Part shown: piece after piece, positions 12,985 through 18,210 of the stretch
How the letters are laid out: each line of letters begins with the position of its first letter
How positions within the stretch are numbered: the stretch's first letter is position 1
Virus record (IMG/VR): IMGVR_UViG_2740892426_000006
Origin: a virus
Taxonomy: Duplodnaviria; Heunggongvirae; Uroviricota; Caudoviricetes
DNA: 34,415 nucleotides
Direction: 5' to 3' (one strand)
Notes under the pieces: model-generated
Databases searched by the model: none
What the model saw: the letters and a program-made list of their open reading frames with translations, nothing else
What the model was told of the DNA's origin: nothing
Position numbers and translations under genes: made by a program

Positions 12985-14046
12985 ATGAAAAACACTGTAA
13001 AAATAAACAGTATTGATTTAATCAACGCTGATTGCCTGCATTTTATTCAGTCCCTGCCTGATGATTCCATTGACCTGATTGTTACCGATCCGCCTTACTT
13101 CAAGGTGAAACCCAACGGTTGGGACAATCAGTGGAAAGGGGACGAAGATTACCTTAAGTGGCTGGACCACTGTCTGGCCCAGTTCTGGCGGGTGTTGAAA
13201 CCTGCCGGAAGCCTTTACCTGTTCTGTGGGCATCGCCTGGCATCTGATATTGAGATCATGATGCGTGAACGTTTCAACGTGCTTAACCATATCATCTGGG
13301 CGAAGCCGTCCGGACGTTGGAATGGGTGTAATAAAGAAAGTCTGCGCGCATATTTTCCTGCCACAGAGCGCGTTCTGTTTGCTGAACATTACCGGGGGCC
13401 ATATCGCGGCAAAAGTGACGGCTATGTGGCAAAAGAAAGGGAACTCAAACAGCACATAATGGCACCGCTGATATCGTATTTCAGGGATGCTCGTGCCGAA
13501 CTGGGTATAACGGCAAAACAAATTGCCGAAGCCACAGGTAAGAAAAATATGGTTTCCCACTGGTTTGGTGCCAGTCAGTGGCAGTTGCCGAATGAGGCTG
13601 ACTACCGGAAGTTACAGGCACTGTTTTCCCGTATAGCGGCAGAGAAGTTTCAGGAACAACAACTGGAACAACCACACCACCAGTTGGTGGCATCTTATGA
13701 TTCACTGAATCGCAAATATTCTGAATTGCTGGATGAGTTTAAATCTCTCCGGCGCTATTTCTCCGTATCAGTCTCCGTGCCTTATACCGATGTCTGGATG
13801 CATAAACCCGTTCAGTTCTACCCGGGTAAACATCCGTGTGAGAAACCGGCGGATATGCTCAGGCAAATAATCAATGCCAGTAGTCGACCCGGCGATCTGG
13901 TTGCTGATTTCTTTATGGGATCCGGTTCCACAATAAAAGCAGCAATGGCGCTGGGGCGTCGGGCGTTAGGTGTTGAGCTTGAGACAGAGCGGTTTAATCA
14001 GACCATCCAGGAAATCAGTATGTTATCAGCAAATACAATTTTGTGA
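12985..14046 (+). CDS. orphan DNA methyltransferase (N6-adenine/N4-cytosine class; motif IV precedes motif I)
   Basis: DLIVTDPPY (motif IV) near the N-terminus and FFMGSGST (AdoMet-binding motif I) near the C-terminus; no restriction endonuclease gene adjacent. Confidence 0.8.
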   Translation: MKNTVKINSIDLINADCLHFIQSLPDDSIDLIVTDPPYFKVKPNGWDNQWKGDEDYLKWLDHCLAQFWRVLKPAGSLYLFCGHRLASDIEIMMRERFNVLNHIIWAKPSGRWNGCNKESLRAYFPATERVLFAEHYRGPYRGKSDGYVAKERELKQHIMAPLISYFRDARAELGITAKQIAEATGKKNMVSHWFGASQWQLPNEADYRKLQALFSRIAAEKFQEQQLEQPHHQLVASYDSLNRKYSELLDEFKSLRRYFSVSVSVPYTDVWMHKPVQFYPGKHPCEKPADMLRQIINASSRPGDLVADFFMGSGSTIKAAMALGRRALGVELETERFNQTIQEISMLSANTIL

Positions 14047-14326: not shown

Positions 14327-14617
14327 ACAACGAATCCTTCTGATCTGCTTTCGCGGGGCTTTTTTGTATCCGCTCCATGCCCGGCGTATAAGCGGAGGTT
14401 GGTCAGTTTTCTAAAAATTGAAATACCTCACAATTCAGCCAGTTAATGGTTGTTTGTCTGGCGAAGAGTTTGTAAATAAAAAAACGCATGGTGAATCCCC
14501 CTAAGCGGCGGGGCGAATCAGCAGTCAGTTCTGGGATAATCGCGGGTTCGTATGCTGATGCCGGACTCACCGGGAGGCACCCGGCACCATGCATCATGGT
14601 CATCCCCTTGTATGATA

Positions 14618-14642
14618 CCCCTCTCCGGAGGGGTATTTTTTG
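14618..14642 (+). terminator. rho-independent terminator
   Basis: cccctc-tccg-gagggg hairpin followed by tattttttgg. Confidence 0.45.
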
Positions 14643-15073
14643 GATAAAAAAGCCCGCGCTGGGAGGCACGGGCGGCAAGGAATAAAACGTGAAGAAATTT
14701 TCACAGGCGCATAATAATCCGATGTTGCCAGATTTTGCAACTGCATCATCTGGTTATTATGTGAGCTGGAAAATCAGATTCTGTATGGACTGAAGCCATG
14801 CTGTTATTTAGGGCCAAAGAGCTGGCTTTTTCCCGCCTTCTCTCCAGTAACGATTAATGAGAAAAGAATGAAATGCTTTTCCTGGGGAGGAGGGCAGTAG
14901 AAAAAAGAACCCGCCAGCAAAAATATGGGGGATGAACAGCTTTTGCTACTCAGGTTGCTGGCGGGTATGGTTCTTCATGAAATAAGAATGTTACGCGGTA
15001 TTTTTAATGAAAATGATAATTATTGTCAATTGGTTGTGCGTATTTTTTCATACATGACTGGTAAAGGTGATTC

Positions 15074-15106
15074 AGGCCATCAGAGTTTTGCTGATGGCCT
15101 TTTTTC
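15074..15106 (+). terminator. rho-independent terminator just upstream of the holin (second tR'-like element)
   Basis: 10-bp stem aggccatcag/ctgatggcct with loop agttttg, then ttttt. Confidence 0.55.
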
Positions 15107-15138
15107 TTTCCGGTAGCACAGGTCTGTTGGGGCGGGAT

Positions 15139-15354
15139 ATGTATCAGATGGAAAAAATATCAACAGGCATTGCCTACGGCACCTCCGCAGGCAGTGCTGG
15201 CTACTGGTTTTTACAATGGCTTGATCAGGTTAGTCCGTCTCAGTGGGCTGCGATTGGTGTACTGGGAAGTCTGGTTCTGGGCTTTCTGACTTATCTGACG
15301 AATCTGTACTTCAAAATCAGAGAAGACAGAAGAAAGGCTGCGAGAGGAGAGTAA
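15139..15354 (+). CDS. S: phage 21-type class II holin (pinholin) with dual-start motif
   Basis: 71 aa [71 protein letters not shown]; Met1 and Met4 mirror the S21-71/S21-68 dual starts; two TM segments. Confidence 0.8.
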
Positions 15355-15358
15355 TATA

Positions 15359-15703
15359 ATGGTCCAAAACTATGAAATGATTGTGAAAGGGATCCGCAAT
15401 TTTGAGAATAAAGTTACGGTAACTTTAGCATTACAGGACAAAGAACGCTTTGACGGTGAAATTTTTGACCTGGACATCTCGCTGGACCGTGTTGAAGGTG
15501 CCGCGCTGGAGTTTTATGAGGCAGCAGCCAGAAGGAGCATCAGACAGGTCTTCCTGGATGTTGCTGCCGGGTTATGTGGAGGGGATGAGCAGTCGCCGGA
15601 AAAGCGCCCCATAATTTTAGAGGCGCAGAGTGTGTGGATAACCTACAAAGGAAAACTGCCGGGAAGAATTACTGGTTCACTGAAGACTCCGCCGAAATGG
15701 TAA
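15359..15703 (+). CDS. hypothetical protein between holin and endolysin (YdfR-position)
   Basis: ATG 4 nt after the holin stop with a GAGAGGAGAG Shine-Dalgarno; occupies the slot of ydfR in Qin-type lysis cassettes as I recall them. Confidence 0.45.
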   Translation: MVQNYEMIVKGIRNFENKVTVTLALQDKERFDGEIFDLDISLDRVEGAALEFYEAAARRSIRQVFLDVAAGLCGGDEQSPEKRPIILEAQSVWITYKGKLPGRITGSLKTPPKW

Positions 15704-15941
15704 TTTCACCAGCATATTTTTCCTCCAGTAATACCGCCAGCCACTTGAAAGAATTTTGTTGTTGCTGGGACCATTTGGGATTGATTGATTCAAGCTGGAG
15801 CGATGCCAGTGTTGGTTGCATTTGTTCCTTGGGAATTGAGAATGCCAGATATGAAAATGCGACAGCAAGGGCATTTACATCATCCCGAAGCCTGGAAATG
15901 CAGTCGAGCAACTCCTGTAGAGAAATGGTGCTATTGTCCAT
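15669..15941 (-). CDS. hypothetical protein, 90 aa, convergent with the preceding gene
   Basis: ATG at 15939-15941 preceded by AGAGAGGA with 6-nt spacing; amphipathic helical composition; its 3' end overlaps the preceding gene by 35 nt. Confidence 0.4.
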   Translation of the reverse strand: MDNSTISLQELLDCISRLRDDVNALAVAFSYLAFSIPKEQMQPTLASLQLESINPKWSQQQQNSFKWLAVLLEEKYAGEITISAESSVNQ

Positions 15942-16046
15942 AAACAATCCTCTCTATTGTATTTAACTATTCCTTGCCTGATTCAACAGGCCGGGACAGA
16001 TAAACATATCCAGGGTTCAGAAACCGATAAATCCTGATAAATATCC

Positions 16047-16580
16047 ATGAACGCAAAAATCAGATACAGCCTGTCGGCTACTGTACTAGTGCTGATTGGT
16101 GCAGGCGCGTCTGCTCCTCAAATACTTGACCAGTTTCTGGACGAAAAAGAAGGTAACCACACAACGGCATACCGTGATGGTTCCGGCATCTGGACCATCT
16201 GTCGGGGTGCCACGATGGTGGATGGAAAACCCGTTTTTCCCGGTATGAAACTGTCGAAGGAAAAATGCGACCAGGTTAACGCCATTGAACGTGATAAGGC
16301 GCTGGCATGGGTGGAACGTAATATTAAAGTACCACTGACCGAACCACAAAAAGCGGGTATCGCGTCATTTTGCCCCTATAACATTGGCCCCGGTAAGTGT
16401 TTCCCGTCGACGTTTTATAAGCGGCTTAATGCCGGTGATCGTAAAGGTGCCTGTGAGTCGATTCGCTGGTGGATTAAGGACGGTGGGCGTGATTGCCGCA
16501 CTCGTTCAAATAACTGCTACGGACAGGTTATTCGTCGTGACCAGGAAAGCGCATTAGCCTGTTGGGGGATAGATCAGTGA
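16047..16580 (+). CDS. R: SAR endolysin (T4-lysozyme-like muramidase with N-terminal signal-anchor-release segment)
   Basis: 177 aa; N-terminal hydrophobic Gly/Ala-rich segment [15 protein letters not shown]; E..D..T catalytic spacing in [16 protein letters not shown]. Confidence 0.8.
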
Positions 16581-16668
16581 GAAGAGTAGCCGCGATTATC
16601 TCCGCTCTGGTTATCTGCATCATCGTCTGCCTGTCTTGGGCTGTTAATCATTACCGTGATAACGCCAT

Positions 16669-16747
16669 TACCTACAAAGCCCTGCGCGACAAAAATGCCA
16701 GAGAACTATACCTACAAAGCCCTGCGCGACAAAAATGCCAGAGAACT
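16669..16747. repeat. 39-bp perfect tandem duplication with 1-nt spacer inside Rz
   Basis: tacctacaaagccctgcgcgacaaaaatgccagagaact occurs at 16669-16707 and 16709-16747, separated by a single a. Confidence 0.9.
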
Positions 16748-17109: not shown

Positions 17110-17403
17110 TTATTTTGAGCAATACACCCGCGCTTCCTGCGGAGTATAAATGCCAAAAGTGATGAAACCGAGCAATCCATTTACGAATGTTTGCTGGGTT
17201 TCTGTTTTAACCACATTTTCTGCACCACCACAAATTTTTGCTGCATCGACAGTTTTCTTCTGCCCAATTCCCGAAACGAAGAAATGATGGGTGATGGTTT
17301 CCTTTGGTGTTACTGCTGTAGGTTTGTTTCCAACAGTAAACGTCTGTTGAGCACATCCTGTAATAAGCATTGCCAGAGCGGCAGAAAACAACATTTTTTT
17401 CAT
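17110..17403 (-). CDS. bor: Bor lipoprotein (serum-resistance protein)
   Basis: 97 aa from MKKML with lipobox LITGC; near-identical to lambda Bor from memory. Confidence 0.85.
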   Translation of the reverse strand: MKKMLFSAALAMLITGCAQQTFTVGNKPTAVTPKETITHHFFVSGIGQKKTVDAAKICGGAENVVKTETQQTFVNGLLGFITFGIYTPQEARVYCSK

Positions 17404-17883
17404 CTTATTATCCTGCATTGTTAAAAACGGCAGAATCCTATGTGACAACAATTAAACGATAGTTAAATGGATTGATGAAAATTAAAACTACACAGGTGAG
17501 CTCAGACGATTGGAGGGAGTTGGGGACACTCAGAATCCTGTGGAATGAAATAAACCGGTCTATCCGTCCATTACCCTTTTAGCTGCGCTGTATCGTCGCC
17601 GTATTCCCGCATTAACCATGACCGTAGCCCGACGGGGAATTCCTTCTGCGTGAGTGTGCGGGAATAATTAAAAACGATGCACACCGGGTTTTTACCGCGT
17701 TAATGATTCGCGGATTTATCCCGGTGCGATGGTGGAAGAAACCGGAAGCTGTATTACAGAAAGTGCTACTACTGTATCCCGATGCGATGTATGTAATGTG
17801 AGTCAGATAATGGCACAGGATGTGGTGATGTGGCAGTCTGGAACACAGGATATATTGTCAGAATAAGACCCGTAGGAATAAAA

Positions 17884-18210
17884 ATGAAAAGACGCCTTTT
17901 ACTACTTTTTCTGTTATCTGTCCTAGCAGTGGGATGCTCGCAGCAAAAAGCTGATGAGCCCCGGCAATTAGTGACGGTGTATCCACGATATCCGGAATAT
18001 GCTGCAGCAAATTATATCAAGGGGCTGGTTGAGGTTAAGTTCGATATTGGTGCTGATGGGACTGTGACACGGATCGTTTTTCTCCGCTCAGAGCCTCATA
18101 ATTTGTTTCGTGATGAAGTGGTGAAGGCCATGGCGAAATGGCGATTTGAAAAGAATCGTCCCTGTCAGGGAGTGAAGAGACAATTTATCTTTACGCCGTC
18201 ACGTCCCTGA
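17884..18210 (+). CDS. lipoprotein with TonB C-terminal-like domain
   Basis: Signal peptide with lipobox LAVGC; the segment YPEYAAANYIKGLVEVKFDIGADGTVTRIVFL...AMAKWRF fits a TonB C-terminal fold pattern. Confidence 0.55.
   Translation: MKRRLLLLFLLSVLAVGCSQQKADEPRQLVTVYPRYPEYAAANYIKGLVEVKFDIGADGTVTRIVFLRSEPHNLFRDEVVKAMAKWRFEKNRPCQGVKRQFIFTPSRP

Follow-up and report, generated by a model that had tools for sequence, protein, structure and literature searches.

A probable accessory gene overlapping the 3' end of ydfR in the lysis cassette of an Escherichia coli lambdoid prophage

The stretch of 34,415 nucleotides (nt) catalogued as IMG/VR virus record IMGVR_UViG_2740892426_000006, referred to here as the window, is part of an Escherichia coli lambdoid prophage. 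The subject of this report is a pair of small genes that face each other between the holin and the endolysin of its lysis cassette: the forward gene ydfR, which encodes 114 amino acids on the plus strand (15359–15703), and a reverse gene of 90 amino acids, counted from its ATG, on the minus strand (15669–15941). The two reading frames overlap at their 3' ends by 35 nt (15669–15703, both strands), a segment that contains reverse codons 80–90 plus the stop and ydfR codons 104–114 plus the stop. The presence of two small genes at this place, with an overlap of that length, had been put forward in an original prediction made from the letters of the sequence and is confirmed. The same holds for the coupling of ydfR to the holin, as the gene starts 4 nt past the holin stop, with GAGGAGAG immediately upstream of its start, and for the proposed Shine-Dalgarno sequence of the reverse gene, AGAGAGGA (15955–15948, minus strand), which is usable and leaves 7 nt between GAGG and ATG. 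The (G/A)AGGA of this site is kept in nine of nine diverged copies. Over positions 15000–16700 the window agrees completely (100% identity) with the chromosomes of strains 20Ec-P-124, CE0021a and FCI1, and to 99.9% with those of IHE3034 and APEC O18. In genomes of both identity levels the RefSeq Prokaryotic Genome Annotation Pipeline (PGAP) already calls the same four coding sequences, namely holin, YdfR, reverse gene and lysozyme. The RefSeq order is a class II holin, a 114-amino-acid 'YdfR family protein', a backward 90-amino-acid 'hypothetical protein' (WP_000370548.1), lysozyme, RzpD and a backward iss/bor gene. The pair is real, widespread and previously annotated.

The reverse gene is found under the names Ybl58 in UniRef and phrog_2411. 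When 5.8 billion proteins were searched, 51 homologues of its product came up in Escherichia and Shigella, at 70–97% identity; nearly all are exactly 90 amino acids long and a few are obviously frameshifted. Eight diverged DNA copies can be aligned without gaps, and the pooled ratio of non-synonymous to synonymous differences per site (pN/pS) is about 0.32–0.33 over codons 1–79. The reverse frame is the sole one of the six frames that is open in all eight of these copies. A plus-strand open reading frame (ORF) of 110 amino acids, at 15634–15966, has a similarly low pN/pS of 0.28 and carries stops in four of the eight relatives; because it is broken in half of them, it was rejected as a gene and regarded as an antisense shadow. 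The phrog_2411 profile matches the reverse protein over residues 1–90 of 90 with an E-value of 1.5e-58. Distant homologues with 30–60% identity were detected in Citrobacter, Serratia, Sodalis, Chania and other genera by searching a profile against 1.84 billion representative proteins and then a profile against the 5.8-billion-protein database, and phrog_2411 confirms their membership. Since its length is conserved, its pN/pS is low, its frame alone is always open and distant homologues exist, the reverse ORF is judged on sequence grounds to be a genuine gene. An AlphaFold model of the protein shows four helices with a mean predicted local distance difference test score (pLDDT) of 71; residues 80–90 fall below 50 and are predicted to be disordered. 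The protein is acidic, with an isoelectric point of 4.4. A literature search with ybl58, the WP accessions and phrog_2411 as terms yielded no paper mentioning the gene.

Related cassettes reveal that the reverse gene occupies a slot whose content varies. In the Qin prophage of K-12 the order is holin, a ydfR encoding 103 amino acids and endolysin; the stop codon of ydfR overlaps the start of the endolysin gene, and the reverse gene is absent. Phage vB_EcoS-689R5 has a 116-amino-acid ydfR followed 63 nt later by the endolysin, and again no reverse gene. Strain S88 harbours ydfR and lysozyme without it, at a chromosomal coordinate similar to that of IHE3034, which carries it. In Stx2 phage 86 (locus L006, 1501–2631) the YdfR protein is 268 amino acids long and the same slot is filled by an unrelated backward gene of 104 amino acids, belonging to phrog_1853. 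At the DNA level the window is collinear with 689R5 up to 15698, within the last ydfR codons, and again from about 15989. The accessory cassette proper corresponds to the intervening 290 base pairs (bp) or so (15699–15988), in place of which 689R5 and S88 have about 20 nt. Compared with K-12, the variable stretch begins near codon 69 of ydfR and ends about 14 nt short of the endolysin ATG. The possibility that the segment preceding the endolysin is a relic of a K-12-type YdfR C-terminus, which would have pointed to an insertion into a Qin-type gene, was considered and rejected, because K-12 rejoins the window only at this last point. The composition of the interval is also distinctive: the G+C content is 42.7% between 15704 and 15989, as against 52.0% for the window and 50–51% for the endolysin and Rz genes, and resembles that of iss/bor (41.5%).

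The reverse-gene segment is present in 1,221 of 5,426 complete E. coli genomes, of which 4,349 contain some form of ydfR and 2,871 the C-terminal module of YdfR. In 1,133 of the 1,221 carriers the segment is joined to ydfR as in the window, and in BL21 the pair resides in the Rac prophage. Phage records contain the gene rarely (3 of 50,697). The original prediction had proposed a comparison with Qin-type cassettes as the means of judging whether the reverse gene is conserved. The answer is divided: the gene is well conserved where it is present and absent from many close cassettes, and hence accessory. Morons have been defined as extra genes relative to related phages, with their own promoter and terminator and a deviant G+C content (PMC3714127). 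Here an extra gene lies in a region that is contiguous in the close relatives 689R5, S88 and K-12 Qin, and its G+C content (42.7%) differs from that of the surrounding phage sequence (52.0%); the slot and composition features of the reverse gene match three of the usual moron criteria, and for the promoter and terminator there are weak candidates. A separate arrangement was noticed in phage phiSTEC1575-Stx2k (L004, 1281–3299) and in loci L011 and L012, where no SAR (signal-anchor-release) endolysin comes after the S21-type holin, ydfR and reverse gene. Its place is taken by a terminator-like hairpin and another set of lysis genes (Phage_holin_8, Phage_holin_3_7 and M15 peptidase), and the junction falls exactly on the endolysin start codon.

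The forward gene is itself a composite. YdfR-114, as the window protein is called here, matches Pfam PF07041 (DUF1327) with 143.9 bits, against a gathering cut-off of 25, and an E-value of 1.9e-42; RefSeq names it a 'YdfR family protein'. Codons 1–72 (15359–15574, plus strand) encode the conserved DUF1327 N-domain, which is also present in YdfR of K-12 Qin. Codons 73–114 (15575–15703, plus strand) encode a variable C-module that ends in GRITGSLKTPPKW before the stop codon and is not found in the K-12 protein. An alignment of the two proteins is collinear to about residue 72 and divergent beyond it, the residues that follow being dependent on the cassette. BLAST (Basic Local Alignment Search Tool) comparisons place recombination breakpoints in this region at about 15564, 15610 and 15694–15698. 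YdfR of K-12 has been reported to bind the N-terminal, catalytic half of RNase E, residues 1–72 being sufficient, and to co-purify with RNA; its overproduction alters only a few transcripts (PMC13232886). The residues that interact with RNase E in the K-12 protein are conserved in YdfR-114. A structure model predicted from the single YdfR sequence reached a mean pLDDT of 50 and is too poor for use.

Of the two frames in the 35-nt overlap, that of ydfR is under constraint, with a pN/pS of 0.22, and that of the reverse gene is close to neutral (0.76). Conservation of the reverse family ends near residue 77, and residues 80–90 are poorly constrained. The ydfR sequence that contains the reverse stop codon is found likewise in 689R5, a phage without the reverse gene. 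Elsewhere the overlap measures 7, 14, 17 or 32 nt, so that its overall range is 7–35 nt. Given the constraint on the ydfR frame, the near-neutral, disordered and variable tail of the reverse protein and the inconstant length, the overlap is most likely a run-on of the reverse frame into ydfR and not a regulatory device. The idea of mutual antisense control through the overlap is not supported: selection in the segment acts on the YdfR frame, and the late transcript would be antisense to the entire reverse gene, not to 35 nt alone. Taken as a whole, the reverse ORF is interpreted, with a probability of roughly 0.6, as a genuine and self-contained accessory gene, or moron, that sits in a recombinationally variable slot of a P21/Qin-type cassette and whose overlap with ydfR is incidental.

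Each gene is also encountered without the other. In strain SMS-3-5 an intact 90-amino-acid copy of the reverse gene lies beside iha among transposase fragments, and the flanking ydfR and endolysin genes are decayed. Synonymous divergence (dS) between this copy and the others is about 1, with a ratio of non-synonymous to synonymous divergence (omega) of 0.2–0.3. At locus L013 (3274–3448) the N-domain of ydfR has been replaced and the reverse gene is intact; the last 35 or so ydfR codons (…GKLPGRITGSLTVPPEC and stop) are still in frame, behind an in-frame stop. In four Serratia assemblies a homologue is located on the chromosome, flanked by dinI and bssS, and the opposite strand carries no partner ORF. 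The opposite situation is found in Salmonella prophages, where the forward partner has been retained but the reverse gene is reduced to about its last 24 codons. In Serratia, a LexA-box-like sequence with one mismatch, TACTGAATACTTTAACAGGA (L030, 4971–4990), overlaps the Shine-Dalgarno sequence of the homologue, a match that is not statistically significant; the neighbouring dinI has a similar LexA-like box. Inspection by eye of the region upstream of the E. coli reverse gene disclosed no LexA box.

Other late-operon slots also contain distant homologues of the reverse gene in backward orientation. In L022 the slot is the one separating tail genes M and L, in L026 it precedes the terminase, and in L034, from Citrobacter, it precedes the holin; a fourth homologue was met on a short contig (L028). 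At all four loci the homologue converges on a small forward gene and overlaps it. The forward products end in …KITGSLRAPIKL (L034, Citrobacter/Salmonella), …LTGDILIPLES (L026) and …IFGDLKKPPSY (L022), which may be set beside …RITGSLKTPPKW in YdfR-114. Aligned with hhalign, the last 18 residues of YdfR match these tails with an E-value of 2.7e-4, and pairwise shuffling gives z-scores from 3 to 9.5; BLASTP found no similarity between YdfR and the L022 partner, and the L028 partner is without the tail motif. The slot between M and L offers a further comparison, as L022 and L041 agree to 97.5% as far as forward-gene codon 47 or so and, ahead of gene L, to 91%, with swapped cassettes between (L022, 3830–4520; L041, 2440–3100). 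Each cassette consists of a different forward-gene tail and a different reverse gene, the latter encoding an 88-amino-acid phrog_2411 homologue in L022 and an unrelated 72-amino-acid protein in L041. The swap thus places the edge of the cassette within the forward gene, so that the tail is transferred together with the reverse gene.

The expression of the reverse gene has to be considered in the setting of the surrounding cassette. This opens with a P21/S21-type class II holin of 71 amino acids (15139–15354, plus strand), which matches Pfam PF04971 'Bacteriophage P21 holin S' with an E-value of 2.6e-35, has a dual start (Met1/Met4) and is labelled 'class II holin family protein' in RefSeq. The endolysin (16047–16580, plus strand; RefSeq 'lysozyme') matches Pfam PF00959 Phage_lysozyme with an E-value of 2e-24; its N-terminus is a hydrophobic segment rich in Gly and Ala, of the SAR type, and the motif E-x8-D-x5-T can be read from the translation. 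With an S21 holin, a SAR-type lysozyme and then Rz, the cassette has the predicted make-up of the P21-type pinholin/SAR-endolysin group. About 500 nt upstream of the holin there is a full-length match to Rfam STnc100 (14457–14645, plus strand, 114.5 bits), and a terminator-like hairpin with a 10-bp stem and a T-run (15074–15100, plus strand) lies just before the holin start. These two features resemble the leader and terminator of a late promoter and, by analogy with the late-promoter leader of lambda, would place the lysis genes in a Q-dependent late operon. In lambdoid phages a backward gene is not known to interrupt the Q-antiterminated late transcript. On its way to the terminase genes the late transcript has to pass the backward iss/bor gene as well, and for this reason the endolysin would need no promoter of its own. 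The original prediction had required one between 15948 and 16046, an expectation that found no support: a scan of the plus strand in this interval detected no sigma-70-like site, and the last 58 nt or so before the endolysin ATG (15989–16046, plus strand), in which no promoter-like site was found, are common to cassettes without the reverse gene and conserved in 689R5.

On the minus strand, an A/T-rich −10-like block, TTAAATACAAT (15956–15966), is a candidate promoter element for the reverse gene. It is conserved in an alignment of nine upstream regions and reads TATAAT in SMS-3-5; no conserved −35 was found in the same nine regions. A candidate terminator, GCGCCUC-N9-GGGGCGC followed by UUUU (15600–15626, minus strand), has a folding free energy of −11.8 kcal/mol and is located within ydfR, starting 42 nt past the reverse stop; a standard terminator scan did not report it. 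The SMS-3-5 remnant retains the 7-bp stem of this hairpin although ydfR has decayed. In an Stx-phage context (L010, 339–3001) an IS66-family insertion lies 45 nt upstream of the reverse ATG, with both the −10-like block and the ORF intact.

If the reverse gene is an accessory element of this kind, the slot would span the interval from the conserved ydfR N-domain to the endolysin gene, and the low-G+C cassette would also supply the last forward-gene codons, the reverse frame continuing to the first stop that it encounters in the 3' part of ydfR. The transcript of the reverse gene would probably end at the weak hairpin, some 45–65 nt further inside ydfR. Holin, ydfR, endolysin and Rz may all be expressed from one Q-antiterminated late transcript, which would read the reverse cassette in antisense, as with iss/bor, and no endolysin promoter would be called for. 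The reverse gene could then be expressed from its own weak promoter in the lysogen, where late transcription is off, and be silenced after induction by the oncoming late transcription. Its product is predicted to be a small, acidic, cytoplasmic helical protein, which may act without YdfR and benefit the host or the prophage; protection against other phages, or a stress-related task, might be guessed.

Several results weigh against this interpretation. The reverse protein has no match in Pfam, NCBIfam or PADLOC, and its PHROGs family is unnamed. A PDB sequence search with the family profile returned nothing, and a Foldseek comparison of the AlphaFold model with PDB and BFVD gave at best an E-value of 0.38. 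A consensus scan detected no sigma-70 site for the reverse gene, and the −10-like block is so near the Shine-Dalgarno sequence that the two could hardly act together as drawn. The terminator hairpin is weak, single mismatches break its stem in two loci, and there are no compensatory changes; both the promoter and the terminator must be called weak candidates. Finally, the recurrence of a YdfR-like tail motif beside distant homologues of the reverse gene is not what an incidental boundary predicts.

Other accounts of the locus have been weighed against these data. The least credible takes the reverse frame for a spurious antisense ORF. AT-rich DNA, the want of a known domain and the open ORF opposite (15634–15966) would fit such an origin, but purifying selection, the conserved length, the stops that relatives carry in the other frames, and homologues in distant genera and unrelated contexts together refute it as far as sequence can go. 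It is also very improbable that the two genes form a toxin–antitoxin or addiction module, as the original prediction had suggested on account of their convergent overlap. An exclusion role, which that prediction also named, is still conceivable for the reverse protein by itself. They are small, adjacent prophage genes, and the convergent overlap recalls some antisense-controlled toxin systems; neither protein, however, resembles a small membrane toxin, and no toxin, antitoxin or defence family was matched in PADLOC, Pfam or NCBIfam. Joint inheritance is not observed, each gene being common and widespread without the other, and this separate occurrence speaks against an addiction pair. Overproduction of K-12 YdfR, moreover, altered few transcripts (PMC13232886). 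An unlikely, if less remote, proposal, along the lines of the original prediction, is that the convergent pair regulates itself and the lysis genes through antisense RNA or transcriptional interference, thereby tuning lysis timing or curbing leakiness of holin and endolysin in the lysogen. Convergent transcription is built into the layout, the 3' overlap recurs in other contexts and the candidate terminator is weak; beyond it, the minus strand offers no further terminator-like site until 15177–15163, within the holin gene, so that a reverse transcript could cover both ydfR and part of the holin gene in antisense. Yet closely related cassettes work without the reverse gene, which argues against a part in core lysis control, and homologues occupy slots unconnected with lysis, among tail genes and on the Serratia chromosome. 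The inconstant overlap length (7–35 nt) tells against this proposal too, and purifying selection on the reverse coding frame indicates a protein product, as opposed to an RNA alone.

The similarity of the forward tails raises the question of whether the tail is functionally tied to the reverse protein or is just a trace left by an ancestral neighbour. The main rival reading, a functional two-part module in which the reverse protein and the forward C-terminal tail belong together and the carrier of the tail is recognised, masked or controlled, seems rather unlikely. Such a cassette would move as tail plus reverse gene, and in the window the carrier of the ITGSLKxP motif would be the RNase E-binding N-domain of YdfR. 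It draws on the similar tails at L034, L026 and L022, with the hhalign and shuffling values given above, and on the codon differences in ITGSL that separate the window from the Citrobacter locus L034, which are synonymous. The L022 forward gene also has variants with other tails, and L041, the one whose surroundings were examined, adjoins a different reverse gene; in E. coli the reverse gene abuts the tail in nearly all carriers (1,133 of 1,221). On the other side, the similarity is short, BLASTP is blank for YdfR and the L022 partner, and the partner at L028 has no motif. Tail-bearing YdfR occurs more often alone than together with the reverse gene (2,871 against 1,221 genomes, and likewise in 689R5 and Stx2 phage 86), so that a dependence of the tail on the reverse gene is disfavoured. 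The reverse gene in turn persists without an intact tail-bearing partner in Serratia, SMS-3-5 and L013, and Salmonella retains the partner after loss of most of the reverse gene. It is less probable still that the cassette is portable with a boundary that always falls inside the upstream forward gene and supplies an ITGSLKxP tail as a handle for the reverse protein. If true, this would link the state of the prophage to the RNase E-binding domain of YdfR and amount to a two-part accessory cassette of a type not described before, with occurrences in at least four slots of late operons, from Escherichia, Citrobacter/Salmonella and two prophage-like contigs.

The accessory-gene interpretation can be set against known systems. 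Lambda bor and the related iss are morons with which the reverse gene shares several traits: each is an extra backward gene that interrupts a string of late genes, is lower in G+C and is absent from close relatives. The bor gene is expressed in lysogens. Bor and Iss are lipoproteins with a serum-resistance phenotype, whereas the reverse gene is predicted to encode a cytoplasmic helical protein; its 3' boundary, unlike theirs, lies inside the upstream ORF, and its promoter and terminator are only weak candidates. YdfR of K-12 Qin likewise directly follows an S21-type holin and is closely similar over residues 1–72, the whole proteins being 68% identical, but it has 103 amino acids, an unrelated C-terminus and a stop that overlaps the endolysin start, and no reverse gene comes after it. 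Stx2 phage 86 also has a small backward gene between ydfR and endolysin, and its YdfR module is common up to …GSLKMPP; that backward gene, gp06 (phrog_1853), is however unrelated and does not overlap ydfR, and YdfR is about 155 residues longer. The par locus of pAD1 is a convergent, antisense-controlled toxin system with overlapping 3' ends. Convergent units and overlapping ends are common to par and the present pair, but here each partner is a conserved soluble protein, no toxin-like peptide is encoded and the linkage is not obligatory.

The iss/bor lipoprotein gene of the window (about 17110–17403, minus strand), between Rz and the terminase genes, is the second backward low-G+C gene in the same late gene string. 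A small plus-strand ORF with a lipoprotein-like signal (…LAVGCSQQ) lies between iss/bor and the terminase genes (17830–18210), and the best-matching genomes have a coding sequence named 'TonB family protein' at a similar position. Upstream of the STnc100 match and the lysis genes, the window harbours a gene for a DNA methyltransferase of 353 amino acids (12985–14046, plus strand); a homologous N6_N4_Mtase gene occupies the equivalent position in L011.

These observations bear on how P21/Qin-type lysis cassettes are read. They correct the idea that backward genes split the lysis operon, and they identify the interval from about ydfR codon 70 to the endolysin start as a hot spot of cassette exchange. 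For those who work with YdfR, the part reported to bind RNase E, residues 1–72, is also the constant part of the protein, which provides experimenters with a natural domain boundary. The reverse gene is carried by about a fifth of complete E. coli genomes, BL21 included. Because it has been retained under purifying selection in decayed prophages and is chromosomal in Serratia, a benefit to the bacterium is suggested, and the gene is a reasonable candidate for a function in lysogenic conversion or phage exclusion.

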